DNA of 64,000 nucleotides from Verrucomicrobiota bacterium (GCA_022710935.1 JAKLFY010000014.1:31041-95040); one strand, 5' to 3'. Positions 2,715 through 32,498 are shown, counted from the first letter of the stretch. Translations and numbers: made by a program. Notes: a model not told the origin generated them from the sequence alone.

Positions 2715-3515
2715 ATGACACCTCCGTTGCTTTCCTTCGCGTCGCCCGACCGCCATGCCGCGATTGCGGACATCATCCGAAGACGTTCGAGCAATCCGGC
2801 CGACATCCGGCGGATGGAATTCGCCGGTTTGGATTGGACGGCGATCTGCGAGGCGCTGGATCTCGGGTGCGGTTTCGGGTTGCCGGCGGGGCTTCTGGCC
2901 CGAGAGAGCGCTCCGGGCACCCGGATTGTGGGAGTCGATGCCTGCGCCGAGAACGGCGCCCCGTTCCTTGCGGCCGTCCGCGCCGCCGGGCGCCACGGGG
3001 CCTTCGAGTGTTTGCGGCTCGATCGGACGCTGCCCTGGCCGGATCGGCGGTTTGACCTCGTCGTGGCCGCCTACTCGCTGTATTACTTTGTTGACCTCTT
3101 GCCGGAGATCGCGCGCGTTTTGAGCCAAAGCGGGACCTTCGTGACGGTGACGCACAGCGAGACGACCTTCCGCGCTCTGTGCGAAGCCGCGGGGCTCGAC
3201 GCGTCTTCCAGTCCGCTGCGCAGGCTCCTGCGCGGATTCTGCGCCGAGAACGGGGCGGACCGGCTGGCGCCGTTCTTTGCGGACATCGAGCGCATCGAGT
3301 ACCCGAACACCTTGCGGTTCGAACCGGAGCACCTGTCGGAATTGCTGGACTACGCGGATTTCAAAATGCCCCTGTTGGCGGCCGAACGCGGCGTGTCCGA
3401 GGCGGTGCGCGCAGGCGTTCGGCAGCGTCTTGCCGCGCTGCTCAGGGGCGGGGGAGTCTTTGAGATGGACAAAAACGACGTTATTTTCAGGTGCCGCCGG
3501 CCCCACGCGCGATGA
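2715..3515 (+). CDS. Class I SAM-dependent methyltransferase
   Basis: ATG at 2715. Motif I ALDLGCGFG is followed by RIVGVDA and DLVVAAYSLYYF (motif II/III-like spacing). 266 aa. Confidence 0.8.
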   Translation: MTPPLLSFASPDRHAAIADIIRRRSSNPADIRRMEFAGLDWTAICEALDLGCGFGLPAGLLARESAPGTRIVGVDACAENGAPFLAAVRAAGRHGAFECLRLDRTLPWPDRRFDLVVAAYSLYYFVDLLPEIARVLSQSGTFVTVTHSETTFRALCEAAGLDASSSPLRRLLRGFCAENGADRLAPFFADIERIEYPNTLRFEPEHLSELLDYADFKMPLLAAERGVSEAVRAGVRQRLAALLRGGGVFEMDKNDVIFRCRRPHAR

Positions 3516-4531
3516 AGGCGCGCTACTGCAGCCAGTGCGGCCACGCGGTGACCACGCGCGAGGTGGCGGGACGCGCGCGCGAGGTGTGTGCGCAGTGCGG
3601 CACGGTCTTCTATCGGAATCCCCTGCCTGTGGCTGCATCGGTTGTGCTCGATCCGCGGCGCCGGGTGCTGCTGATTCAACGAAAGCACCCGCCGCGCCGC
3701 GGCCTCTGGTGCCTGCCGATGGGGTTCGCGGAGCTGGGGGAGACGATCGTCCACGCCGCCCGGCGCGAGCTGGCCGAGGAGGCGGGGATTCAAGGCCGCG
3801 CCACGCGCCTGCTCACCGCGGAGTCCGTGAAGATCAAGCCGTATGGCGATCTGTTGGTGATCAGCTTCGAGATCGAGAAGACGGGCGGGATCGAGGCGGC
3901 TGGCGATGACGCCCGGGATTGGGCGTATTTTCCGCTGGATGCGTTGCCGCGCATGGCCTTTGCCGCCAATCAGCGGGCCATTCGCCAATGCGTGCGGGCG
4001 CATCGGGAGCCGTGGGCGATTCAGGATTCGTTTCAGCACATGCAGCAGCAGACGCACGAGGCGATGCTGTCCGATTCCCTGGTCCGCCTGATCAGCCGGC
4101 ATGCGCGCGCGATCTGCGACGCCTGGCTGCGGGAAGTGCGGTCGCATCCGGCCACTCCGAGCTATGCGCGGGTGGCGCCGTCCTCTCTCCGGACGCGGGC
4201 AGTGCAGGCGCTGTCGCAGTTTTCGGGATGGCTCGCCAACGGCGAAGAGGGCGACGAGATCGGGCGCTTCTACCGGGCGCTCGGGGCCGAGCGCCGCCGG
4301 TTGGGTTTTGCGTTGAACGAGGTCCTTCGGTCGCTTGGGCTCCTGCGACGCCACATGTTGCGATACGCCCTGGACAGGGGCGTCTGGCATGGCGCTCTGG
4401 ATGCCTACACGGTCGTCGAACTCGATCACCGCATCATCGGGTTCTTCGACCAGGCCGTGTACCACGTTGCCTTGGGCTACGAAGAGGCCGAGAAAGACCG
4501 GGCTAGTCGGTCTCGAATGCGAACAGCGTGA
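3512..4531 (+). CDS. NUDIX hydrolase with N-terminal CxxC..CxxC zinc ribbon and a C-terminal helical sensor-like domain (RsbRD-N-like)
   Basis: The ATG at 3512 overlaps the upstream stop (ATGA). Zinc ribbon: CSQCG..CAQCG. Exact Nudix box: GFAELGETIVHAARRELAEEAGI (Gx5Ex7REUxEExGU). The last ~170 aa are all-helical (WLREV..GFALNEVLRSLGLLRRHML). Confidence 0.8.
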   Translation: MKARYCSQCGHAVTTREVAGRAREVCAQCGTVFYRNPLPVAASVVLDPRRRVLLIQRKHPPRRGLWCLPMGFAELGETIVHAARRELAEEAGIQGRATRLLTAESVKIKPYGDLLVISFEIEKTGGIEAAGDDARDWAYFPLDALPRMAFAANQRAIRQCVRAHREPWAIQDSFQHMQQQTHEAMLSDSLVRLISRHARAICDAWLREVRSHPATPSYARVAPSSLRTRAVQALSQFSGWLANGEEGDEIGRFYRALGAERRRLGFALNEVLRSLGLLRRHMLRYALDRGVWHGALDAYTVVELDHRIIGFFDQAVYHVALGYEEAEKDRASRSRMRTA

Positions 4532-6890
4532 TGCTGCAAGGCGCGAGCGTGATCTGTTCGCCCACTGATGGCACCTGCTGTTCCTCGATTACGACGCGTG
4601 GCGTTTGGTCGGGGTCGTTGAACGCCATCGGGTCCGCCCCGGCGATCTGCCAGCGCGTGCCGTGACCCTTGAGCCGGGCGCCCTGGATGCGGAGCGGGAC
4701 GGTTGCCGGTTCGAGGGTGGGATTGACCACGCCGAGCGTGAGCGTTTTACGGTCACGGCTCCAGGCCGCCTGGGCGTCGACCAGGCCGGTCGTTTGCGTG
4801 GCCACGGGCAGTTCGCCGAAGTGGTGCCGGTAGAGTTTGAGCACCAGGCCCGTGGTCTCGAACGCCGCGTTGCGGCGGCTTGTCTTGATTGCGCCGATGA
4901 CGTTGACCGTCTGCGCATAGAACGCGGAGCCCACGATGTCGCTTTGCCGGGCGTACTCGTGCACGCCCGCCGCGATGCCGAGGGCGTCCTTGAGAAAATA
5001 GCGCGTGCCCAACTCGCCGAAGACGTGGGGCCCGTACCAGTAGTTCCATTCGGTCATGGCGATGCGGATGTTCTTGCCCTTGAGTTCGGGCAGGTCCTGC
5101 CGCGCCTTCCGGTGCCACTCGGCTTTGCGCCGGATATTGTCCGGGATCTGGCGCACGTGGGCGGCCAGGCCGGGGCGCTCCTGACAGTAGAAATGCTCGG
5201 CGATGAAATCCATGTGGTCCGGGCTCGATTTCAGGAGGCCGGTGCTCCACGCGCCGATGTCGCCTGAGGCGATGCAGATGATTTTCGGATCGACCTCGCG
5301 CATCTTGTCGACGACCCAGTTTTGCTTGATCACGTAGTGGTCGAGGGCCATGTGTCCCAACTGCCAGGCTCCCCACATTTCGTTTCCGATGCCCCAGTAT
5401 TTCACTCCGAACGGTTCAGGCGCTCCGTTCTCGGCGCGACGGCGTCCCCAGTGGGTGTCGGGGGCCCCGTTGCAGTACTCGAGCTGGGCGGCTGCCGAGT
5501 AGGCGTCGCCGAAACCGGTGTTGACGGTGATCCAGGGCTCCGTGTCGATCAACCGGCAGAACCGGATGAACTCGTGCATGCCGAAGTCATTGTGCTCGAC
5601 GCCCGTCCAGGCCGGGTTGGTCCGGGGCGGACGCCGGTCGCGGTCGCCGATGCCGTCGCGCCAGTCGTAGCCGCTGACGAAATTGCCGCCCGGCCAGCGG
5701 TAGATGGGGGCTTTCAAATCCTTCAACAAGGCGAGTGTGTCGGCGCGCATTCCTTCGACGTTGTCGGCGGGCATGAGGGAGACCGTGCCGATCAGCGCCG
5801 CGCCTTCCTTGACGAGCAGTTCGAGCGTCGCCTTGTCGGTCGTCCCGCCAGCCGTGAAGGCGAATTCGAAGCGGCGGTAATCCGGGGCGTCGAGGGCCAC
5901 GGCTACCGTTCTCTTGGCCGCGGCGTCGTCCCCCCACGCGAGCGTGACATCGACCGACACACTCCGGCTGCCGTGGGGCTTGAGCCAAACGTAACCCGTG
6001 TAGCGTTTGCCCTGCGTCACCCCGAGGTCTTCCTGCCGGATGCCGGTGCCCGCCTTGACTTGGGGCGTGTGTCGTCCGGCAAACGGCTTTTCTCCGTTCA
6101 TGGAGACGCCGTCGGCCGCGCCAACGATGCGCCAGGGCGAGGCCCCGACCACCGGGAAGGCCGAATCGCGCAACGAGCGGTAGGGGCGATAGTCGGCGGT
6201 GATGGGGAAATAGAACTTCCTGTCTTCGAGCATTTCGGCCCAGATCCCCCCATAGATGCAGCGTCCCAGATGTTCGATGAACTGGCTGTAGATCTCGGGA
6301 GATAGCGGTTCCCGGACCTGGCCGGCATCGACGCTGATCTGGGGGGCGGGCGGATCCCGGCGGCTCAATTGGGCCAATTCGAGATCGTCATACCAGGCCT
6401 TGCCCGTGGCCTGGCCCCAGCCGCCCAGCAGACAGTTGATCTGGAGAAGGTGGTGGTCTTCGACGTCGAACTCGACCTCGACACGCGTCCAGTCCGTTGT
6501 TCCCGTCACGGCCTTCGTCGCCACGGTCTGAATCTCGTGCACGTTGAAGAGGGCGCCGCGTCCGCTCGCTGCCCGCACATTGTCCGTCTTGATCCAGCCC
6601 GAGAGGCGATAGCGGCTGAAGGGCTCAACCGGGACCGAAGCGCTCCAGGAGATGTCGGCTCCCGCGTCCGACGACAACATCACGCTGCGGTCGCCGGTGC
6701 GGGCTGCGTCCGCCACCCGAGCGGCTCCTTCGCCGCCCCAGACCTGCTGCCGCCAGCCCCTCGGACGCCCGCCCTGCATCTCCTCGAAGGAGTTGTTCGG
6801 GATCGGATTCCCCGCGGCCGCGAGCTGTGGATGCGCGAAGAGAAAGAGCAGAGCGGACCAGAGAAGACGGTTCAGTGCTTTCATGTTCAA
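4503..6890 (-). CDS. GH51-type alpha-L-arabinofuranosidase with N-terminal CBM4/9-like carbohydrate-binding module
   Basis: Signal peptide MNMKALNRLLWSALLFLFAHPQLAAA. CBM-like N-terminus (IPNNSFEE..GW..W). TIM-barrel core with YWGIGNEMWGAWQLGHM (GNE acid/base motif) and a C-terminal beta-sandwich. 795 aa. Confidence 0.85.
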   Translation of the reverse strand: MNMKALNRLLWSALLFLFAHPQLAAAGNPIPNNSFEEMQGGRPRGWRQQVWGGEGAARVADAARTGDRSVMLSSDAGADISWSASVPVEPFSRYRLSGWIKTDNVRAASGRGALFNVHEIQTVATKAVTGTTDWTRVEVEFDVEDHHLLQINCLLGGWGQATGKAWYDDLELAQLSRRDPPAPQISVDAGQVREPLSPEIYSQFIEHLGRCIYGGIWAEMLEDRKFYFPITADYRPYRSLRDSAFPVVGASPWRIVGAADGVSMNGEKPFAGRHTPQVKAGTGIRQEDLGVTQGKRYTGYVWLKPHGSRSVSVDVTLAWGDDAAAKRTVAVALDAPDYRRFEFAFTAGGTTDKATLELLVKEGAALIGTVSLMPADNVEGMRADTLALLKDLKAPIYRWPGGNFVSGYDWRDGIGDRDRRPPRTNPAWTGVEHNDFGMHEFIRFCRLIDTEPWITVNTGFGDAYSAAAQLEYCNGAPDTHWGRRRAENGAPEPFGVKYWGIGNEMWGAWQLGHMALDHYVIKQNWVVDKMREVDPKIICIASGDIGAWSTGLLKSSPDHMDFIAEHFYCQERPGLAAHVRQIPDNIRRKAEWHRKARQDLPELKGKNIRIAMTEWNYWYGPHVFGELGTRYFLKDALGIAAGVHEYARQSDIVGSAFYAQTVNVIGAIKTSRRNAAFETTGLVLKLYRHHFGELPVATQTTGLVDAQAAWSRDRKTLTLGVVNPTLEPATVPLRIQGARLKGHGTRWQIAGADPMAFNDPDQTPRVVIEEQQVPSVGEQITLAPCSITLFAFETD

Positions 6891-6976
6891 GTATTAGGCC
6901 TTGGGTGACGCGGTGTGTTTTTCCAAACAGTAGCTGGACTTCCCGACTGAGTTCAAGGCTGTCTAAGTCAAATCTC

Positions 6977-6994
6977 ATGTCGCGATCGCGACAT
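6977..6994. promoter_or_regulatory. Perfect 18-bp palindrome ATGTCGCGATCGCGACAT (candidate operator 1 upstream of the GH51 gene)
   Basis: Read directly from the sequence. Lies 87 nt upstream of the GH51 start (6890) in a 222-bp, comparatively AT-richer intergenic region. Confidence 0.5.
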
Positions 6995-7049
6995 AGAATC
7001 TGAACATCTCATCTGGCGATTCCATTCGGCCTCCCAGGTGTCACATTAC

Positions 7050-7066
7050 ATGTCGCGATCGCGACA
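7050..7066. promoter_or_regulatory. Second copy of the palindrome, ATGTCGCGATCGCGACA (candidate operator 2)
   Basis: 17 of 18 positions are identical to the copy at 6977..6994. Centre-to-centre spacing is 73 bp (about 7 helical turns). Confidence 0.5.
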
Positions 7067-7112
7067 CGAAATCCGGCGTTTGCTCTGGTCTTGGCCTGTC
7101 AACTGAGCCGGG

Positions 7113-8315
7113 TCATTGTCGCGGGAAGTTCCGCAGCAGGGCTGCCGTTGCGGCTGTCATGCCCTGGCCGTAGCGGGTGGGATCGAGGACCTTGAAGCGA
7201 CGCACTGTCTTCGAATCCGGTCCCGAGCCGCAACGGACCTCGGCGTTGTCGCTGATGCTCAAGTCGACATCCTCGAACGCGAAGAGAAGTCCGGAGGGCA
7301 ATGACTGGGCGGGCCGGGATGGAAGCTCGAGGAACCGGACGCCGGCATCAGGCTCGAAGGCCACGCCTTGTCCCGCGAGCGTGACGAACACGGCCGCGCA
7401 CCAGAGGTTGCGCTTCATGTCGAACAGTCTGTTTCGGCGGGCGGGGTCGGGTGACTGTTCGAGGAAGGCCAGCGGATCGGACGTCCCTTTTTCGAGCGCG
7501 TAGAGGAAGTACTGCACCAGGCCGTCCGGCGCATGGCCCAGCAGGTCGGCATGACTCGCCTGCCAGAACGATGCGCGCCCCTGGTTTTTCCATGGCCCGC
7601 CATCGAAACATGGCACCCAATCGATCGGCAGAGCGGATCGCATGAGTCCGATGAAGGCCTGGGGATCGAGTCCGACATTGTGCTCCCGGAAATCGGCCTT
7701 TGACGCTTCGCCAATGAAACACAAGACCCTGCTGATCTTCCGACTGCAGAGCGCGGGGTGTCGGTTGAATGCCGCCACGACGTCGCGCGCGCTGCCGACG
7801 GTTACGAGCGCGACCGGTTGGGGCGACGCTTCGAGGGTGTCGAGAATCAGCCGCACGCCCTCCTGCCCATCGGCGTCCTGATCCAGGGCCTTGTCGTCGG
7901 GCGATCTCAGCTTGTCCGGCAAACCGACCGCCACCGGGACGCGACGCCCGGTGAGCCGGTTGAGCTGAGACACGGGGATTCGCCCGGGCCGGTGCCTTTG
8001 CGTGGCGCCTTGATCGAGGACGATGCCCTTGAGATCAATGCCCGGGACCGCATAGAGCACGGCCAGGTCGAAGTGATCGTCCGGGTCGTCGTGCGGATGG
8101 AAGAGATCGGTCGAGTAAAGGACGGGTTGGGCGCCGCGACTCCAGAGAGGGAGCAGGACCATCGCCAGGACGACAGCCAGCCACCGCGCCACCGTTGCAG
8201 CGCCGCGGTCAGTGGCGGGGCGGCGTGTGGCGATCCACAGCCCCGCTCCGTCCTGTCGCATTCCCCTGGTCGAATCGGGGGAGACAGATCGCGATCGTGT
8301 CGGTCGCAGGTTCAT
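7113..8315 (-). CDS. Membrane-anchored or secreted nucleoside-hydrolase-fold (IUNH-like) protein
   Basis: ATG at 8315 (MNLRPT). Hydrophobic anchor WLAVVLAMVLLPLW. N-terminal acidic cluster STDLFHPHDDPDDHFDLAVL resembles the DxDxxxDD metal/ribose site of nucleoside hydrolases. The track ORF extends to 8561, but that extension is Arg/Pro-rich junk. Confidence 0.5.
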   Translation of the reverse strand: MNLRPTRSRSVSPDSTRGMRQDGAGLWIATRRPATDRGAATVARWLAVVLAMVLLPLWSRGAQPVLYSTDLFHPHDDPDDHFDLAVLYAVPGIDLKGIVLDQGATQRHRPGRIPVSQLNRLTGRRVPVAVGLPDKLRSPDDKALDQDADGQEGVRLILDTLEASPQPVALVTVGSARDVVAAFNRHPALCSRKISRVLCFIGEASKADFREHNVGLDPQAFIGLMRSALPIDWVPCFDGGPWKNQGRASFWQASHADLLGHAPDGLVQYFLYALEKGTSDPLAFLEQSPDPARRNRLFDMKRNLWCAAVFVTLAGQGVAFEPDAGVRFLELPSRPAQSLPSGLLFAFEDVDLSISDNAEVRCGSGPDSKTVRRFKVLDPTRYGQGMTAATAALLRNFPRQ

Positions 8316-24015: not shown

Positions 24016-24648
24016 ATGTCATCCAACCCCACCGAGATCGGGCGTCTGATCGTGGCATTCCGCGCCGGCGATGTGGCCGCCGGCGACGTCTTGCTGCGAC
24101 GCTACCAGCCGTGGCTGAAGCTGCTGGCGCGCGTGCAACTCGAAAGCCGATTCCACGCGAAGCTCGATCCGGCCGACGTGGTCCAACAGGCCATGCTCGA
24201 GGCGGTGCGTGCCCTGCCGCAATTCCGCGGCGGTTCCGAAGGCGAATTCACCGCCTGGCTGCGTCAGATTCTCACCCACGCGCTGGCCCGTGAAATCCGC
24301 CGTTACGCCGGCACGGCCAAGCGCGACGTGGCGCGCGAGGCGCCGATCGAGCAGGAGCTCGCCCAGACCGCGCAACAGTTGGGTGACCGGCTCGCCGCCA
24401 CGGGCACCTCGCCAAGCCAGCGGATGATCAAACACGAACAGGCCGTTCTGCTGGCCGACGTGCTCGAGCGGTTGCCGGAGGACTTCCGCGAGGTGATCAT
24501 CCTGCGGAATCTCGAGGACCTGCCTCACGAAGAAATCGCCCGTCGCATGGGACGAAGTCCGGGCGCCGTGCGCATGCTCTGGGTGCGGGCGCTGGCCCGG
24601 CTTCGGGAGGAGCTTCAGTCTTCAACGTGCGGCATCCGGCGTGGATGA
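24016..24648 (+). CDS. ECF-type sigma-70 family RNA polymerase sigma factor (Ser/Thr-kinase-associated type)
   Basis: Starts 6 nt after the kinase stop. Region 2 (DVVQQAMLEAVRALPQFRG..FTAWLRQIL) and region 4 HTH (VIILRNLEDLPHEEIARRMGRSPGAVRMLWVRALARL). 210 aa. Confidence 0.85.
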   Translation: MSSNPTEIGRLIVAFRAGDVAAGDVLLRRYQPWLKLLARVQLESRFHAKLDPADVVQQAMLEAVRALPQFRGGSEGEFTAWLRQILTHALAREIRRYAGTAKRDVAREAPIEQELAQTAQQLGDRLAATGTSPSQRMIKHEQAVLLADVLERLPEDFREVIILRNLEDLPHEEIARRMGRSPGAVRMLWVRALARLREELQSSTCGIRRG

Positions 24649-24663
24649 GGCAGAATTCGCGGC

Positions 24664-24828
24664 ATGTCTTTGACCCATCCCACCGCGGCGCTCGTTTCGG
24701 AGACGAAGAGGTTCACCCTCAGCCTCGCCATCCTGCTCGGGTTGGCCACGTGCGGGGGCTTCCGCAGCCAGGCCAGTGACGCCGGGGAATTGGATCCGAC
24801 ATTCGCGCCGACTCGGAAGGAAATGTGA
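24664..24828 (+). pseudogene. Truncated remnant of a secreted repeat protein: signal peptide plus the first ~10 residues of a GELDPTF-type (delta-60/beta-propeller repeat) mature domain
   Basis: Own translation: MSLTHPTAALVSETKRFTLSLAILLGLATCGGFRSQASDAGELDPTFAPTRKEM*. It stops after 54 aa, immediately after the motif that normally opens a long repeat domain. Not in the track because it is under 60 aa. Confidence 0.45.
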
Positions 24829-24942
24829 CGCGCGGGAGAGAGGCCGGAATACACGCGGGCAGTCCGCGAAACTGAATGGGCCACGAGGCTGCGCCCAGGC
24901 AAATGACTCGAGTGAAGAACCCGCTCAGGCCTCTGAGTGGAA

Positions 24943-24968
24943 TCAACTGTATAGATGCGACCCCATTG
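24943..24968 (+). repeat. Conserved 26-nt motif, copy A: TCAACTGTATAGATGCGACCCCATTG
   Basis: Read directly. Lies 114 nt downstream of the stop of the 24664..24828 remnant on the same strand. Confidence 0.85.
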
Positions 24969-25261
24969 TCTTGCTGAAGCCGTCTTCCGCGGCCGGCGCG
25001 GGTTCGATGTGAACAACCACATGCTCGACGGCCAGTGAAGAGGACTTGAGTCGATCGCTGACCTGATGCCCGATCTCATGGCCGCGTCGCACCGTTGGAT
25101 CGCCAGCCATCTCGACCATGGCCGTAGGGGTGGTCCGGATCGGGGGGCAGTGACGCAACCTTGAGTCCCGTCCGGACGACCAGCGAACTGATGACGTCCG
25201 CGGCGGATTCGATGCCGTCACGCACTTGACTTGGAGGCGTGTCGGGAGGATGTTGCCCCAC
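24943..25261 (-). pseudogene. Cation diffusion facilitator (CDF) transporter wreck with a large internal deletion and a frameshift
   Basis: Two minus-strand frames carry CDF signatures. One is DGIESAADVISSLVVRTGLKVASLPPDPDHPYGHGR (TM2/loop). The other is VEMAGDPTVRRGHEIGHQVSDRLKSSSLAVEHVVVHIEP (C-terminal domain). They abut at about 25080-25100, and roughly 200 codons of the TM core are missing. Confidence 0.55.
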
Positions 25262-25353
25262 GCCAAGCCAGTCCCGACCAGAGCCATCGAGGAGCGTGGA
25301 GCGGTGGCGAGGTCGAGCTGATTGTCGCGGCGGGCAGCCGAGAGGACAAAGCC

Positions 25354-26169
25354 ATGAAGCGCGGGTTCGATCCTGGTTGTAGCGAGGAGCCGTTTCGGAG
25401 TCTGGCGCAGGAGTACCCCGGGGAGAGTGCGTATCCCCCTGACCAGTTCCGGGTCGAGTGGGGACCGATTTTCCACCGCGGGAGGTTGGACGGCTCGGCG
25501 CGGGTGCTGGTCATCGGCCAGGACCCGGCACAACACGAAGCGGTTGTTCGGCGCATTCTGGTGGGGGAAGCGGGGCGGCGGATCCAGGGATTCCTTGCCA
25601 AGCTGGGGATCACTCGCAGTTACGCGATGATCAACACGTTCCTTTACAGTGTCTACGGTTCCGTCAAGGCCGCCACGCGAAAGAACCCGGTGCTTGTCGC
25701 ATATCGCAACCGATGGATCGACGCGTTGATGGCCAGCGGGCGGATCGAGGCGGTCGTCGGGCTCGGGGTGTCCGCGCGGGAGGCGTGGGAGTTGTGGAAG
25801 GCGACGCCCGCGGGTCAGGCCTCGACTGTGGCTTTCGCTGCGATCACCCACCCGACGCAGCCGGAAAGCGCCTCCGGAAAGGATCGAGCCAAACTCGAAC
25901 AGGCGACCAAGACATTGCTGGCTAATTGGAACCTCGCCTTGAGTGCCTTGGCTCCGGCGATCACCCATCCGGATGTCCCGCGCCCCATCAAGCCGTACGG
26001 GACGGCCTGGGCCGATGGCGACCGGACCCCCGTGCCCGAGGGCGACATCCCCGCGGGATTGCCGGCGTGGATGCACGAGCAGGACGGTTGGGCAGCCCGC
26101 AAGGGCAAGGACGACCTCGCCAAACGCCGCAACATCACCATCACGGTTCCCAAAGGAGTGGTCGCATGA
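25354..26169 (+). CDS. Uracil-DNA-glycosylase-superfamily protein (divergent, cytoplasmic)
   Basis: ATG at 25354, with GAGAGGA upstream. Motif-A-like ARVLVIGQDPAQHEAVVRRILVGEAGRRIQGFLAKLGI. The conserved Asn is in YAMINTFLY. Motif-B-like AFAAITHPTQP. No signal peptide. 271 aa. The track ORF starts at a TTG (25231). Confidence 0.65.
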   Translation: MKRGFDPGCSEEPFRSLAQEYPGESAYPPDQFRVEWGPIFHRGRLDGSARVLVIGQDPAQHEAVVRRILVGEAGRRIQGFLAKLGITRSYAMINTFLYSVYGSVKAATRKNPVLVAYRNRWIDALMASGRIEAVVGLGVSAREAWELWKATPAGQASTVAFAAITHPTQPESASGKDRAKLEQATKTLLANWNLALSALAPAITHPDVPRPIKPYGTAWADGDRTPVPEGDIPAGLPAWMHEQDGWAARKGKDDLAKRRNITITVPKGVVA

Positions 26170-27935
26170 CTTACAAACGCTCGTGGTATCCCCTGATGGG
26201 GCCGATCACGGCCTCGCGCCGTGGGACGGCCGCCGGGCCAAAGAAGCAGCAACCGGTCGACCTTTTGACAGGGCCGAAGCTCGCCCTGGCAGGACGCGTC
26301 GTAACGATGGACGACACTTTCACGATCCGCACGAACGCTGTCGTGTACGTGGAAAAGGGCGTCATTGTGGCCATCCAGGACCGGGAGCAGCCCGCCCCGG
26401 ACGGCTTTGGCGAGGTGCCCGTGGTGAAGACCGGCGGGAGCATTTTTCCGGGGCTGATCGAACTCCACAATCACCTGAGTTACGACACCCTCCCGCTCTG
26501 GTCGCCGGTGCCCAAACGATTCAAGCATCGGGGGGAATGGCCCAACCACGAACAGTACCGTCCACTCGTTAGCGGGCCCATGACAGTGCTGGGCATGTAT
26601 CAGGATTCTTCGGGGCATTACCCGCTCCTGCCGGCACTGGTGCGTTATGTCGAGTGCAAGTGCCTGCTGGGGGGAGTCACCACCAGCCAGGGGATCCGGC
26701 TCGCCAGCAACGCCGGGATTCAGCGCTTTTACCGCGGCATCGTCCGCAACGTCGAGCAGACGGACGATCCAGATTTGCCCGAGGCCCAGTGCCGCATCCC
26801 GGATGTGCACGCGAAGGATGCCGCCAGGTTCCTGGCGCGCCTCAGGAAGGAGGATAGCTGCTTCCTCCTTCATCTCAGTGAGGGCCTCGCCGAGCAGGCG
26901 CAGCCGCCCTCCGCGGCGCGGAAGCACTTTCTGGCCCTCGAAGTGGCCCCAGGCCAATGGGCGCTCAACGAGATGTTTGCAGGCATTCACGCCGCGGGTC
27001 TGCTGCAGGAGGACTTCGACGTCCTGGCCAGCCACCGCAGTTCCATGGTCTGGTCGCCGCTCAGCAACCTCCTCCTGTATGGCGGCACCGCGCGCGTGGA
27101 CGCCGCCCGCAAGGCCGGCGTGACCATCGGCCTCGGCAGCGACTGGTCGCCCACGGGCAGCAAGAACCTGCTGGGAGAGCTGAAGGTGGCGTGGCTCTAC
27201 AGCCAACACCTTCTCGACGGACTGTTGACCGCCCGCGACCTCGTGGCCATGGCCACCCGGGATGCTGCCCGCATCTTGAAATGGGACCGTGCGGCAGGGA
27301 CACTCGAAGCCGGGCGGCGCGCCGACCTGGTGGTGATCGAGGGCACATCCGCCGACCCCTACGAGGCCCTGATCCGGGCGAAGGAGTTGGATCTCCGGTT
27401 GGTCATGATCAACGGCGTGGCCCGCTACGGCGTGCCCAGCTTGATGCGCCAGCTTGGTTCTGACGGCCAGTCCGTGTCTGTAGGGGGGCGCACCCGCCGG
27501 CTCTTCCTCGAACAGGCGACCGCCGATCCTGACGTGGCGCAGGTGCCCCTGAACGAGGCCGCCGCCACGCTCCGCCAGGCTCTGCAGAATATCGCGGAGC
27601 TGGCCAAGGAAATCGAAACGCCCAAGCCGGCGCCCGCGACCAGGCATCTGCTCGATGCCCATACAGCCCCGGTCTGGTCGCTCGCCCTGGATGAGATCGG
27701 TTCCTGCGGTGTCGAGTTGTGCCCGCGGCTGCCGTTCAACGGGCCGGACGATTTCACTGGACCCGACCGCGCCCCGCGCGCCCTGGCCATAGCCGCCCCT
27801 CCGCTTTCGACCATCCTGAAACCGATCCAACTCGATCCTCTGACCGTTGCCGACGACCCCGGATTCCTGGATCGCATCGCTGCGCAGCCAAATCTCCCTG
27901 CAGCGGTCAGGACCGGTCTGGCGGGGCTTTACTGA
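26166..27935 (+). CDS. Amidohydrolase-superfamily protein of the nucleobase/nucleoside-deaminase type (COG0402, TRZ/ATZ-like)
   Basis: The ATG at 26166 overlaps the upstream stop (ATGA). Motifs: FPGLIELHNHLSYD (HxH), FLLHLSEGLAE (HxxE), FAGIHAAGL, VWSPLSNLLLYGG, IGLGSDWSPTGSKN, GTLEAGRRADLVVIEG. 589 aa, no signal peptide. Confidence 0.75.
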   Translation: MTYKRSWYPLMGPITASRRGTAAGPKKQQPVDLLTGPKLALAGRVVTMDDTFTIRTNAVVYVEKGVIVAIQDREQPAPDGFGEVPVVKTGGSIFPGLIELHNHLSYDTLPLWSPVPKRFKHRGEWPNHEQYRPLVSGPMTVLGMYQDSSGHYPLLPALVRYVECKCLLGGVTTSQGIRLASNAGIQRFYRGIVRNVEQTDDPDLPEAQCRIPDVHAKDAARFLARLRKEDSCFLLHLSEGLAEQAQPPSAARKHFLALEVAPGQWALNEMFAGIHAAGLLQEDFDVLASHRSSMVWSPLSNLLLYGGTARVDAARKAGVTIGLGSDWSPTGSKNLLGELKVAWLYSQHLLDGLLTARDLVAMATRDAARILKWDRAAGTLEAGRRADLVVIEGTSADPYEALIRAKELDLRLVMINGVARYGVPSLMRQLGSDGQSVSVGGRTRRLFLEQATADPDVAQVPLNEAAATLRQALQNIAELAKEIETPKPAPATRHLLDAHTAPVWSLALDEIGSCGVELCPRLPFNGPDDFTGPDRAPRALAIAAPPLSTILKPIQLDPLTVADDPGFLDRIAAQPNLPAAVRTGLAGLY

Positions 27936-27981
27936 CGAATTCCCATTCAATCGAGACTCGAACCAACCAAACAGGAGGTTT

Positions 27982-29616
27982 ATGCGAAGCGTCAAACTCT
28001 GTGTGACCGTCATGCGTCACCTGAAGAAGAAGTACAATAAGAAAGCGCTGCAAGAGATCACGCGTGCTGTCAAGGACTGGATCGCCGCGGATGCTGCCCG
28101 AGGAATCCAGACCGTGGTTGTGGCGGTGGACGATGCCGCGTCCATGGGTGCCCACCGACTCAGGCCATTGACAGGCCGGATCACCGCCGTGAAGATCAAG
28201 CGCGCCATCGATGCCCTCTGGGGGCGGCTGCAGCCCGAGTATCTCGTTCTGCTGGGCGGCGCGGACATTGTCCCGATGTTTCTCGTGGCCAATCCCTCGT
28301 ACGACCCCAACGGCGACGACGACCAACTGGTGCCCACGGACAATCCCTATGCGTCTTCTTCCCCTTACCGCGCGTCGAACCGGGGCAGCTACCTGGTGCC
28401 GGATCGCGTGGCGGGGCGGATACCGGATATGGTTGCAGACAGCAGTTCGGCATGGCTGGTTGACGCCTTGGCCACCGCCACCACCTGGACCTCGCGGCCC
28501 GCGAGTTTCTACGGCGACCGCTATGCGGTCTGCTGCGCCGCGTGGCAGGGGGCCGGGGAAGACTGCGTCCAGCACATCGGTTCGCCTGTGTCGAGCCTGA
28601 TGATCTCACCGCCGATCACCGACGCCTCGGCGACCGCGCGCAGCCGGCTCTCGTTCAGGCTGCATATGATCAAGTGTCACGGCGCTCCGTTGAACCCGAA
28701 TTTCTACGGCCAGACGGGAAACTCCTTCCCGGTCGTGCTGGCGAGCGCCACCCTCAAACCGCGCGTGAAACCCGCCACCGTCGCAGCCGCGATGTGCTGT
28801 TACGGAGCGCAAATCTACTCGCCCAACGACCCCGCGGCCCAGAATCCCGGAGAATGGCCGATCGCAAGCACTTACTTGCGCCAGGGCGCACTCGGTCTCG
28901 CGGCGTCAACGGTGATCGCGTGGGTCGGTGTGGGCCAGATGATGTGCGCCGACTGGATTGTCGCTGGTTATTTGAAGGGGATCCTCGGCGGGGCTTCGCA
29001 GGGACGCGCGCTTCTCGAATCGAAGCAGGATTACGTCCGCTGGATCAACCAGCAAGGTCAGGCGCCCGACATCGCCGACGAGAAGACTCTGATCGAGTAT
29101 GTCCTGTTGGGCGATCCTTCGATCCAGCCGGTGGTTGCGCCTGCGCTCACTCCCGCCACAGGGGTCCGGGCCGCGACGGCAGGGCCCGCGTTCGCCCTTC
29201 TGGCCCAGGAGCGCCGGCAACGCCGGGTCGTCCGCGCGCAGTTGGCCGGACAGCTCCGCGGGCTGTTGCCCGCACGAACGGCCGCCGCGGGCGCCGCCCG
29301 CACCGGGGCCGGGAAGGTCTTTCGATCGGCACAGGCCGCGCTGGGAGCAACCCTGGCAAAGAGCATCAAGGAATTCCGCATCCGTCCAGCCGCCGTCCGG
29401 GTCGAAAAACTCGACACACCGCTCTCCTTCCCGGCGGAAGCAGCCGGTCGCGGACGAGTTCGCGCGATGGCGTCGGTGCCTCGAACCCGGCAGTCCATCG
29501 AGTACTACTGGAGCGGGCGGCAGGTGCATGACGGACACCGGAGGATCTGCCTCATGAAAGCGGAAACCGATCGCAAGGGCAACCTGCTCCGCGCGTCGTT
29601 GGTCCACAGCAGCTAG
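27982..29616 (+). CDS. Peptidase C25 (gingipain)-like clan-CD cysteine peptidase homologue, cytoplasmic
   Basis: AGGAGG at 27973-27978 precedes the ATG at 27982. C25-like block: EYLVLLGGADIVPMF..LVPTDNPYASS..YLVPDRVAGRIPD. Candidate His-Gly/Cys dyad after hydrophobic strands: RLHMIKCHGAP and VAAAMCCYGAQ. No signal peptide. 544 aa. Confidence 0.6.
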   Translation: MRSVKLCVTVMRHLKKKYNKKALQEITRAVKDWIAADAARGIQTVVVAVDDAASMGAHRLRPLTGRITAVKIKRAIDALWGRLQPEYLVLLGGADIVPMFLVANPSYDPNGDDDQLVPTDNPYASSSPYRASNRGSYLVPDRVAGRIPDMVADSSSAWLVDALATATTWTSRPASFYGDRYAVCCAAWQGAGEDCVQHIGSPVSSLMISPPITDASATARSRLSFRLHMIKCHGAPLNPNFYGQTGNSFPVVLASATLKPRVKPATVAAAMCCYGAQIYSPNDPAAQNPGEWPIASTYLRQGALGLAASTVIAWVGVGQMMCADWIVAGYLKGILGGASQGRALLESKQDYVRWINQQGQAPDIADEKTLIEYVLLGDPSIQPVVAPALTPATGVRAATAGPAFALLAQERRQRRVVRAQLAGQLRGLLPARTAAAGAARTGAGKVFRSAQAALGATLAKSIKEFRIRPAAVRVEKLDTPLSFPAEAAGRGRVRAMASVPRTRQSIEYYWSGRQVHDGHRRICLMKAETDRKGNLLRASLVHSS

Positions 29617-29621
29617 CCCGC

Positions 29622-29885
29622 ATGCCGATCAAGCGAGAACGCGAGATCTACAGGGGTCGGGCGCGGCTCGAAACCGTGCGGCGCGGAACCGGCAGCGAAC
29701 ACGTGGGCGTGGTGCTCGAGACGCCCGACGGCCAGCGGTTCAACCTGGTCCGGCTGGGGGGCAACCCGTTCGACGACGCGGAAACCCGCGAGCTTTCGGG
29801 ACACACCGTCGAGGTCGAGGGCTACCGCGTCGGATCGGATCTTCGCTACACCGTCGCCCGCGTGCACGATGGGGGCAAACATTGA
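29622..29885 (+). CDS. Hypothetical 87-aa protein, last gene of the cassette
   Basis: ATG 5 nt after the upstream stop. MPIKREREIYRGRARLETVRRGTGSEHVGVVLETPDGQRFNLVRLGG..VEVEGYRVGSDLRYTVARV. Pattern looks beta-rich. No family recognised. Confidence 0.5.
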   Translation: MPIKREREIYRGRARLETVRRGTGSEHVGVVLETPDGQRFNLVRLGGNPFDDAETRELSGHTVEVEGYRVGSDLRYTVARVHDGGKH

Positions 29886-31728: not shown

Positions 31729-32244
31729 TCATCCTGCGCCCGGGATCTCACCGCGAGCCTCGAGTCGGCGGCGCTCCTCGAGCAACGCCTCCAGCTCCGC
31801 GATCGGTTCCAAGTCCTTGGGGCGGCCCGCCGCGCGCTTTAGGTGAATCAGGGTGATCAGATCGACGACGCGGAATCGGTGGCCAAAGGCCTCGACCTCC
31901 TCGCTCCTGGGCAGGAGATTCTCATAGCTGCCCCCACCAGGCACCTCGCCCAGCAAGTCGAGGTTCCCCAACTCGCTACTGAGCGTGAAGTTGAGCCCCA
32001 TGCGAACGGTTCGTTCGTCGAATGCAAACGGCAAACCCAGCGGCGCACCGCGAAGATAGGGTTTATGGGATCGCAGAGCGGCAACCAGAGCCCGGATGTT
32101 GTCATGCGACCGTGAATACACCAGATCCACATCCATCGTCGATCGTGCGGACCCGTGCAGCGCTGCGGCCCAGCCGCCGATCAAGATGAATCGAACGCCA
32201 CCGGGAACCAGAACCCCAACGACGCGCTCCAGATCCGCAGACAT
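31729..32244 (-). CDS. Nucleotidyltransferase-fold protein (minimal NTase; candidate toxin or partner of a two-gene module)
   Basis: FILIGGWAAALHGSARSTMDVDLV (GG..HG..R.T.D.D NTase motif). C-terminal LIHLKRAAGRPKDLEPIAELE. ATG at 32244; the track start at 32250 is a TTG. Confidence 0.65.
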   Translation of the reverse strand: MSADLERVVGVLVPGGVRFILIGGWAAALHGSARSTMDVDLVYSRSHDNIRALVAALRSHKPYLRGAPLGLPFAFDERTVRMGLNFTLSSELGNLDLLGEVPGGGSYENLLPRSEEVEAFGHRFRVVDLITLIHLKRAAGRPKDLEPIAELEALLEERRRLEARGEIPGAG

Positions 32245-32246
32245 GG

Positions 32247-32498
32247 TCAACGCGGTTCGGCCCCGGCCGAGCCCGCCCGCGCATTGCGCAACACCTGGCG
32301 CGCGCGGATGAACTCGCTCATGCGCCTCGCCCGCTGATCGAATGTCCGGCGCAGGTTTTGGACAAGCAGGGTTCGGTCCACGTCCTTTTTGAACAGGGCG
32401 ATGAGCGGATCGGTGTCGTCCTTGAAGGCTGGCTCAGCCAATTCCCGCCGGTGCAGGATGACATGCGCGTTGCCCAGAGTCTCGTCACGGTCACTCAC
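32247..32498 (-). CDS. Hypothetical 83-aa protein (candidate antitoxin/partner)
   Basis: The stop at 32247-32249 lies 2 nt before the NTase ATG. GTG start at 32498 with GGAG 13 nt upstream. Helical, charged sequence. No family recognised. Confidence 0.45.
   Translation of the reverse strand: MSDRDETLGNAHVILHRRELAEPAFKDDTDPLIALFKKDVDRTLLVQNLRRTFDQRARRMSEFIRARQVLRNARAGSAGAEPR

Follow-up and report, generated by a model that had tools for sequence, protein, structure and literature searches.

A translationally coupled pair of a BdiUng-type glycosylase and a deaminase-type amidohydrolase, with a separate gingipain-like peptidase module beside it, in a Verrucomicrobiota genome

Introduction

Four genes on the same strand lie packed between positions 25354 and 29885 of a 64,000-nt stretch of DNA from a Verrucomicrobiota bacterium (GCA_022710935.1 JAKLFY010000014.1:31041-95040), hereafter called the window, to which all coordinates without a locus name refer. 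They encode a protein of the uracil-DNA glycosylase (UDG) superfamily, a deaminase-type amidohydrolase, a peptidase-like protein of clan CD and a small protein of 87 aa (proteins 1 to 4). An initial annotation, made from the sequence alone, regarded this cassette as a candidate undescribed system that deaminates and excises bases and cleaves proteins, possibly for defence. The locus thus raises two questions, namely whether the four genes belong together and whether they serve immunity. Our analyses show that proteins 1 and 2 (module A, 25354-27935) form a conserved pair found in bacteria and archaea, and that proteins 3 and 4 are a module of their own (module B, 27982-29885), docked downstream of module A in the lineage of the window.

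Gene organization of the cassette

The four open reading frames (ORFs) and their junctions are as follows.

25354..26169, + strand: protein 1, 271 aa, glycosylase of the BdiUng/Blr0248 family
26166..27935, + strand: protein 2, 589 aa, COG0402-type mononuclear-metal amidohydrolase, deaminase branch
27982..29616, + strand: protein 3, 544 aa, clan-CD (gingipain/C25-like) cysteine peptidase-like protein
29622..29885, + strand: protein 4, 87 aa, DUF5818-like small protein
26166..26169, + strand: ATGA stop/start overlap of genes 1 and 2, read from the sequence
27973..27978, + strand: AGGAGG ribosome-binding site, 3 nt before the ATG of gene 3 (27982)

The tight packing described at first, with all its coordinates, was confirmed in the sequence, down to the 5 nt between the TAG of gene 3 (29614-29616) and the ATG of gene 4 (29622). 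Protein 1 starts at 25354 and not at an upstream TTG, as its 271-aa homologues start at the identical residue. Homologues of each ORF number hundreds to thousands; these are therefore real genes and not chance ORFs. From its arrangement, the ATGA overlap is predicted to couple the translation of proteins 1 and 2. Module B has its own AGGAGG after a 46-nt gap and therefore initiates independently.

Proteins 1 and 2 form a conserved pair

We scanned GTDB with one genome per species and found 392 species with a relative of protein 1, of which the best 80 (59-97% identical to protein 1; loci L012-L091) were analyzed. These belong to about 12 phyla, and two of them are archaea, a Nitrososphaeraceae and a Bathyarchaeota. 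The bacteria are Verrucomicrobiota, Planctomycetota, Acidobacteriota, Nitrospirota, Alpha-, Beta-, Gamma- and Deltaproteobacteria, Gemmatimonadota, Bacteroidota, Myxococcota, Thermodesulfobacteriota and Actinomycetota. A homologue of protein 2 was found near protein 1 in nearly all of them:

Protein 2 orthologue co-directional and immediately downstream, 50-96% identity: 65/80 loci
Protein 2 orthologue divergently adjacent (Actinomycetota): 3/80 loci
Protein 2 paralogue, 31-36% identical, within about 3.5 kb (Acidobacteria, Binatia and both archaea): 11/80 loci
No protein 2 homologue on the contig: 1/80 loci

The 31-36% identical paralogue shares the family-specific middle region of protein 2. 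Homologues run into the thousands for each of proteins 1 and 2, at about 70% identity and with constant lengths (271 and about 589 aa). On seven contigs carrying a protein 1 homologue, the amidohydrolase gene came next with a 4-nt overlap in 7/7, while the other neighbours all differed, and the same overlap recurs in L001-L006, L021 and others. Across 61 species (1830 pairs), the pairwise identities of protein 1 correlated with those of protein 2 (r = 0.90; means of 67% and 63%), indicating that the two genes are inherited, and also transferred, together. That sequences from different bacterial phyla and from archaea are so similar in turn indicates that the pair has spread horizontally and that purifying selection on it is strong.

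An exhaustive HMMER search of 1.84 billion cluster representatives also revealed proteins in which the two activities are joined. The candidates measure 772-866 aa and their N-terminal 270 residues match protein 1. In six of them (P0361, P0364, P0365, P0367, P0374, P0382) Pfam assigned a UDG domain followed by Amidohydro_1/_3, and one further protein, P0449, has the reverse order, amidohydrolase then UDG. The fusions have distinct linkers and intact catalytic motifs. The P0361 cluster holds 15 members from more than 20 contigs deposited in JGI, NCBI, ENA and Logan, and P0374 comes from a Phycisphaerales metagenome-assembled genome (MAG). The fusions are hence genuine genes and not read-through artefacts. 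P0363, in contrast, appears frameshifted. A helix-hairpin-helix suspected by eye in the linker of P0449 was dropped, having no Pfam support even at E <= 5.

Translational coupling and fusion in either order are, in combination, a classical sign that proteins 1 and 2 act together, and they probably do so in physical contact, as a complex. The earlier idea that a deaminase-type enzyme and a UDG cooperate is thus strongly supported by adjacency at 68/80 loci, coupling, correlated divergence and fusions. All-against-all clustering of the ORFs of the 80 loci revealed no recurrent third gene beyond lineage-restricted families, which were ABC-F (12 loci), S41 (8 loci) and C25-like (4 loci).

Nitrifiers account for 16 of the 80 best species, a count without baseline statistics: 11 are Nitrospira or Nitrospirota, four are Nitrosomonas and one is Nitrososphaeraceae. 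Denitrifiers (Aromatoleum) are present as well. The pair may be linked to base damage by nitrite, nitric oxide (NO) or hydroxylamine.

Protein 1 is a BdiUng-type glycosylase

Protein 1 matched the Pfam UDG family with 30.5 bits (gathering cut-off 24.3). A PDB sequence search returned 5gn2_A (E 9.1e-99, residues 4-270 against 4-271 of the chain, about 65% identity), and BdiUng/Blr0248 of Bradyrhizobium diazoefficiens is represented by entries 5GN2, 5GN3, 5GNW and 5GRK. Motif A (G55-Q56-D57-P58-A59), N94 and H166 are invariant among 16 homologues from several phyla, so that the UDG-superfamily layout recognized at the outset stands. Motif A has the catalytic Asp, and an Ala where family 1 has Tyr. 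The segment H166-P167-T168 is also invariant and aligns with the protrusion that replaces the classical motif B in BdiUng. None of the cysteines is invariant in these 16 sequences and the sole one of protein 1, Cys9, varies, suggesting a family without a 4Fe-4S cluster. The C-terminal dimerisation extension is present, and the median isoelectric point (pI) of the orthologues is near 9. By all these alignments, we assign protein 1 to the BdiUng family as a full-length orthologue, and it is predicted to release uracil, 5-hydroxymethyluracil (5-hmU) and xanthine from single-stranded DNA (ssDNA).

BdiUng was described in 2017 (Chembazhi et al., Nucleic Acids Research; PMC5449639) as a dimer without Fe-S cluster that combines a family-4-like fold with the family-1-like catalytic residues GQDPA. 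The enzyme prefers ssDNA, which runs in a narrow groove in the crystal structure, and its minimum substrate is pNUNN. It removes uracil, 5-hmU and xanthine, not inosine or thymine, resists Ugi and is not inhibited by abasic-site DNA (PMC5449639). Its activity is weak (32 pmol of enzyme per 0.1 pmol of substrate for 30 min) and it does not complement E. coli ung (PMC5449639). It entered the literature as an orphan "new class" of UDG, studied alone, and the words amidohydrolase, deaminase, operon, neighbour and downstream do not occur in that paper (PMC5449639). The initial statement that no described system was known overlooked that the enzyme family of protein 1 had already been crystallised and assayed (PMC5449639). 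In the openly searchable literature, subscription-only papers excluded, nothing was found on blr0249, DUF5818 or the pairing of a UDG with an amidohydrolase. What is new here is therefore not the family of protein 1, which was known, but its coupled or fused unit with an amidohydrolase and the phylogenetic breadth of that unit.

More distant relatives of the UDG domain (P0420, P0444, P0469, P0486; 31-39% identity) belong to separate sub-families. The UDG-like domain occurs as two repeats in P0420, which is apparently secreted, and next to a Lamin-tail domain in P0444; P0469 and P0486 combine the UDG domain with helix-hairpin-helix modules.

Protein 2 represents a new family of deaminase-type amidohydrolases

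Protein 2 matched Pfam Amidohydro_1 (64.4 bits, cut-off 25, E 1.4e-17), and Amidohydro_3 was also above its gathering score. Hence the profile matches expected from the initial annotation (UDG, Amidohydro_1/COG0402 and Peptidase_C25) were all found above the Pfam cut-offs. The metal ligands and proton shuttle of the deaminase branch were also recognized correctly, as H101/H103, H236/E239, H275 and D326 are invariant in 34 sequences; HxH follows strand 1, HxxE lies on strand 5, the His on strand 6 and the Asp on strand 8. The best NCBIfam models were guanine deaminase, 8-oxoguanine deaminase and TRZ/ATZ hydrolase, and in each case the cut-off was not reached (74.4 vs 375, 73.5 vs 532 and 71.8 vs 540 bits). 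PDB profile matches comprised AtzA, the PA3170-type adenosine/methylthioadenosine (MTA) deaminase, 8-oxoguanine deaminase, guanine deaminase and TrzN, with alignments confined to the N-terminal sandwich with HxH and to barrel strands 5/6-8. The nearest relatives of protein 2 are thus deaminases of bases and nucleosides, and dealkylaminases or dechlorinases of s-triazines.

Three parts of protein 2 match nothing in Pfam. Residues ~104-232 are a family-specific insert located where relatives bind their substrate, and the C-terminal extension of about 160 aa is acidic. The N-terminal tail (residues 1-38, window 26166-26280) is variable and basic with an invariant W7-x-P9-L10 motif. The UDG-amidohydrolase fusions have either a degenerate form of this motif or none, and it may be a tether to protein 1. 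An AlphaFold2 (AF2) model built from the 34-sequence alignment reached a pLDDT of 51 and was left out of the fold search; the alignment was shallow because the homologues are too similar to one another. Judged by its profile scores, protein 2 appears to be a new family within a known superfamily, outside every named deaminase family.

Proteins 3 and 4 are a module of their own

The Peptidase_C25 block and His-Gly/Cys dyad attributed to protein 3 were substantiated by Pfam (46.5 bits, cut-off 23, E 4e-12) and by the invariance of H233-G234, C272-C273, TDNPY and DRxxGR across homologues. Its AF2 model (pLDDT 86, pTM 0.89) was closest in Foldseek to gingipain K (4rbm, E 3.3e-12), followed by separase and Craspase CHAT. 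Residues 3-9 form a core beta-strand in this model. The proposed lack of a signal peptide in all four proteins agrees with their sequences, and for protein 3 with this N-terminal core strand; no signal-peptide predictor was run. The C-terminal part of protein 3 is a helix plus beta domain, and its last 150 aa matched no Pfam family. Protein 3 is strongly basic (pI 9.9), as is its family, with a median pI of 9.6 and a median net charge of +21. So basic a family is unusual among cytoplasmic peptidases, and its charge would be consistent with binding to nucleic acids. Protein 4 approached the Pfam family DUF5818 below its cut-off (22.9 vs 27 bits, E 6.4e-5), its homologues scoring 13-19 bits. BLASTP gave no alignment of protein 4 with the C-terminal domain of protein 3, and the idea that the two are homologous was rejected.

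A survey anchored on protein 3 covered 80 metagenomic loci, 57 of them informative for protein 4 and 53 for the pair. A protein 4 homologue lies directly downstream of protein 3 at 49 of the 57 loci, and also in L019, L021, L092 and L093. A protein 2 orthologue lies upstream of protein 3 at 7/53 loci, all within a sub-clade at least 59% identical to protein 3. Seen from protein 1, proteins 3 and 4 stand beside the pair at 4 of the 80 species loci. In Beta- and Deltaproteobacteria, proteins 3 and 4 are encoded as a stand-alone pair. As a rule one module occurs without the other, which contradicts the view that the quartet is conserved as a whole; proteins 3 and 4 constitute a module by themselves, an undescribed clan-CD member with a small partner.

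In one acidobacterial lineage (L099, L102, L110, L115, L123, L140 and others), a gene for a Ser/Thr kinase with TPR of about 950 aa lies directly upstream of the protein 3-4 module. A recurrent association with such kinases, found upstream of protein 3 homologues at 18 loci, was dismissed because the kinases are 78-97% identical, reflecting the synteny of a single lineage.

Recurrence of the quartet and of peptidase neighbours

The complete quartet occurs in the close kin of the window (L008-L012), in a Planctomycetota MAG (L019, 62-70% identity) and on a metagenomic contig. A divergent version is present in Nitrospira (L021 and L047, 35% and 29% identity). Other peptidases also meet the UDG. 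P0388 (523 aa, a single JGI contig) is a caspase (Peptidase_C14, with SGHG, DCCYGG and an intact His/Cys dyad) fused to a BdiUng-like domain that has lost the catalytic Asp, its motif A reading GQAP; this domain could bind lesions as a sensor joined to a protease. A CHAT protein adjoins the pair in one Verrucomicrobiae MAG. In a variant from Acidobacteria and Binatia (L024, positions 3466-7777, as well as L025, L029, L037, L057, L058, L062, L063 and L069), the UDG gene converges on an operon in which the 31-36% identical protein 2 paralogue, with HCAEG where protein 2 has HLSEG, overlaps by 4 nt with a 627-aa Peptidase_S41. Locus L095 (3779-8893) encodes proteins 2, 3 and 4 without protein 1; a TIR_2 plus prokaryotic-YEATS protein is encoded just upstream, and about 600 bp of non-coding DNA follow that TIR-pYEATS gene. 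On another contig, a 37%-identical UDG replaces protein 1. The association of UDG and peptidase suggested at first therefore recurs on occasion (C25-like proteins downstream of the pair in the Planctomycetes-Verrucomicrobia-Chlamydiae (PVC) group and Nitrospira, the caspase-UDG fusion) but is not constant. These cases hint at more than chance; as they are few and partly lineage-bound, we treat the peptidase link as facultative.

Genomic context and the defence question

None of the four proteins matched a family of PADLOC-DB v2, which includes RADAR, at E <= 0.1. Homologues of protein 1 were found neither on 72,556 plasmids nor in 50,697 phages. Among 107 genes flanking the pair at 19 diverse loci, no Pfam family occurred more than twice and most genes were metabolic. 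PADLOC returned sporadic single matches in these flanks (IetA, subtilase, AbiEii, mad3/8, SduA, caspase-like; no control set was used) and no recurring defence system. Upstream of protein 1 at 79 loci, a search for LexA, FNR/DNR, NsrR-like and Fur boxes yielded one LexA-type palindrome, which is at chance level. Together with an unusually high conservation, these results speak against the defence system first envisaged. The cassette belongs to the accessory part of the chromosome and is a horizontally mobile module; nothing marks it as an immune system.

The nearest relative of the window is a Verrucomicrobiota MAG whose protein 1 is 97% identical. The G+C content is about 66% across the window, with no compositional break at the cassette. 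Two gene wrecks and a repeated motif had been reported next to the cassette. One wreck was verified: 24562-24648 and 24979-25225 (- strand) are fragments of a cation-diffusion-facilitator (cation-efflux) gene that correspond to residues 38-75, 249-294 and 303-331 of the intact 331-aa gene that precedes this cassette in L008, a close relative. Its central part is gone here, which makes it a deletion-bearing pseudogene. The repeated motif was not recovered, as 24500-25400 contains no repeat of at least 14 nt. The neighbours of the cassette in the window encode a Ser/Thr kinase with FG-GAP repeats, an ECF sigma factor, a GATase, a DUF1559 pilin-like protein, a DUF2204 nucleotidyltransferase and a MacB/HlyD efflux system. 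At 31729-32498 (- strand), about 2 kb from the cassette, the nucleotidyltransferase (173 aa) overlaps by 4 nt with an upstream 83-aa ORF, and the two look like a toxin-antitoxin-type pair.

A possible mechanism and its alternatives

How might a glycosylase and an amidohydrolase work as one unit? We tentatively favour a "convert-then-excise" device for DNA cleansing or stress protection, not for phage defence, as the role of module A. The amidohydrolase would begin by swapping the exocyclic amino or N-substituted amino group of a non-canonical or damaged cytosine- or guanine-type base for oxygen, leaving a uracil- or xanthine-type base. The glycosylase, expected to accept bases with an imide face (uracil, 5-hmU, xanthine) and no normal base, would then flip the product out of ssDNA and cut its glycosidic bond, and the abasic site would pass to ordinary base-excision repair. 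The three BdiUng substrates are the deamination products of cytosine, 5-hydroxymethylcytosine and guanine. They carry no exocyclic amine, and by this chemical reasoning a deaminase-type enzyme can only precede the glycosylase. A missing partner would account for the weak activity of BdiUng and for its inability to complement ung, although other explanations exist. The physiological enzyme is probably a two-protein unit of glycosylase and amidohydrolase.

Several points weigh against such a device. To our knowledge, no amidohydrolase-fold deaminase acts on a base within a polynucleotide, and all characterized relatives of protein 2 that we know of use free bases, nucleosides or nucleotides. Residues 104-232, which make up the substrate-binding half of protein 2, align to nothing known, the core of the protein is not basic (pI 6.9) and no DNA groove can be read from a model with a pLDDT of 51. 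Deaminating normal cytosine or guanine in the cell's own DNA would be harmful, so the target would have to be a non-canonical base. In B. diazoefficiens, blr0249 is no more than a putative gene for the amidohydrolase. No SOS, FNR, NsrR or Fur box precedes the pair at the 79 loci, and a few loci do sit among mobile or defence genes. The recurrent peptidase neighbours and the caspase-UDG fusion also hint that module B is perhaps not wholly independent.

The small-molecule habit of the relatives would suit a division of labour, in which the amidohydrolase sanitizes the pool of free bases, nucleosides or nucleotides while the glycosylase removes the oxo-forms from DNA, as two arms of one protective function and not as consecutive steps on DNA. 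Candidate substrates are amino-base analogues with toxic or mutagenic effects, such as 8-oxoguanine, 8-azaguanine, 5-azacytosine and N-hydroxylated bases, or the base could be processed after excision. We regard this main rival as somewhat unlikely. The characterized COG0402 relatives are all small-molecule enzymes, with guanine, 8-oxoguanine, cytosine/triazine-type and MTA/adenosine deaminases among the best matches; the pair sits in a chromosomal, housekeeping-like context, and its very high sequence conservation is expected of precise small-molecule chemistry. Nitrifiers and denitrifiers meet nitrite, NO and hydroxylamine, which generate uracil, xanthine and N-hydroxy bases, and the former make up 16/80 of the best species, with denitrifiers also present. 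However, the products released by the protein 1 family (uracil, 5-hmU, xanthine) are not deaminase substrates, and the coupling seems tighter than mere co-regulation, given the 4-nt overlaps, the surface-wide conservation and the fusions of either order. No nucleobase transporter or salvage gene recurs nearby either, as seen by neighbour clustering and the Pfam scan of flanking genes. A purely metabolic pair is harder still to defend, and we hold it to be very doubtful. Here, a UDG-fold N-glycosidase would act on a nucleotide-like small molecule or oligonucleotide that the amidohydrolase deaminates first, with the activity on uracil-DNA as a side reaction. This "deaminase then glycosidase" logic is established: aminofutalosine deaminase acts before futalosine hydrolase. 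The very weak DNA activity of BdiUng, its lack of ung rescue and the metabolic context of many loci would agree with it. Yet BdiUng requires an oligonucleotide (pNUNN or more), is basic, with an orthologue median pI near 9, and has a narrow ssDNA groove in the crystal; distant UDG-domain relatives are fused to helix-hairpin-helix DNA-binding modules, and no pathway gene recurs next to the pair.

A single abortive-infection or defence system of all four genes (deaminate, excise, proteolyse), with the 87-aa protein as inhibitor or adaptor, is in our view quite unlikely. It draws on the quartet kept in L008-L012, L019 (62-70% identity) and metagenomic contigs, on the divergent C25-like module (35% and 29% identity) that follows the pair in Nitrospira, on the caspase-UDG fusion P0388, and on the CHAT and S41 peptidases beside some pairs. 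The TIR-pYEATS gene next to proteins 2-3-4 at one locus, a patchy distribution, horizontal transfer, the lack of conserved synteny and the sporadic defence-model matches nearby point the same way. Nevertheless, the quartet is limited to 4/80 and 7/53 loci and both modules are commonly alone, protein 3 having its own ribosome-binding site after a 46-nt gap. The PADLOC search returned nothing for the four proteins, protein 1 is absent from the plasmids and phages searched, the flanks are mostly metabolic, and identities of 60-75% across phyla and domains are atypical of arms-race genes.

The convert-then-excise device could also be extended to the peptidases, a combination that we find improbable. 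Protein 2 would then deaminate bases in ssDNA as the first amidohydrolase-fold enzyme to remove amino or N-substituted amino groups there, a fixed complex with the BdiUng-type enzyme would excise the product, and facultative peptidases would act upstream. The targets would be N4- or N2-adducts, N-hydroxy bases or the peptide remnants of DNA-protein crosslinks, cytosine-type bases being converted to uracil and guanine-type bases to xanthine. The proteolytic step would fall to the C25-like and DUF5818 proteins, S41, CHAT or the caspase-UDG fusion.

Significance and comparison with known systems

The pairing places three puzzles of BdiUng, namely its weak activity, its lack of an in vivo phenotype and its unexplained dimerisation, in a new frame. 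If protein 2 acts on bases embedded in DNA, it would bring a new fold to the nucleic-acid deaminases, of evident biotechnological interest. Should the extended reading with facultative peptidases be true, it would add a repair route for adducts or crosslinks and an enzyme class for G-to-X and C-to-U base editing. Action on free bases would instead mean a new sanitation route, perhaps tied to nitrosative or hydroxylamine stress in nitrifiers. For the locus itself, an attractive but unsupported defence reading has been corrected, and the C25-like peptidase and its small partner have been set out as another uncharacterised module.

Protein 3 shares the C25 match, the fold and the His-Gly plus Cys dyad with gingipains and other members of clan CD (separase, Craspase CHAT, caspases). 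It differs from the gingipain Kgp, to which it is 15% identical, in being cytoplasmic and strongly basic and in having a DUF5818-like partner of about 85 aa. The secretion signal, Ig-like domain and type IX secretion system (T9SS) C-terminal domain of gingipains are not found in protein 3, the first as read without a signal-peptide predictor. RADAR, which consists of the ATPase RdrA and the amidohydrolase-fold adenosine deaminase RdrB, likewise places an amidohydrolase-fold deaminase in a compact cassette. In contrast to RADAR, the cassette described here has no RdrA-like ATPase, no PADLOC match to RdrB and no defence island, and its deaminase-type enzyme is partnered by a glycosylase.

The closest analogy to the proposed logic of the pair is AID/APOBEC with UNG, which deaminate and then excise in antibody diversification and retroviral restriction. 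In both cases an amino base in ssDNA would become an oxo base that a UDG excises. AID/APOBEC enzymes have the cytidine deaminase fold, unlike the amidohydrolase TIM barrel of protein 2, whose action on DNA is a proposal; the pair described here is, in addition, genetically coupled or fused. With the COG0402 deaminases (guanine deaminase, 8-oxoguanine deaminase, MTA/S-adenosylhomocysteine deaminase, AtzA/TrzN), protein 2 shares the HxH/HxxE/H/D ligands and the beta-sandwich plus TIM-barrel architecture, and its N-terminal segment and barrel strands 5-8 align with them. It scores 5- to 7-fold below their curated cut-offs, however, and stands apart by its unique insert, W-x-P-L tail, C-terminal extension and almost constant link to a UDG. 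Finally, protein 1 and BdiUng/Blr0248 have in common GQDPA, the Asn, the His, the C-terminal extension and nearly the same length (271 vs 272 aa). BdiUng was published alone, with no mention of a neighbouring amidohydrolase, whereas the family now has a partner gene, fusions with it and a breadth that takes in archaea, the PVC group and Nitrospirota.

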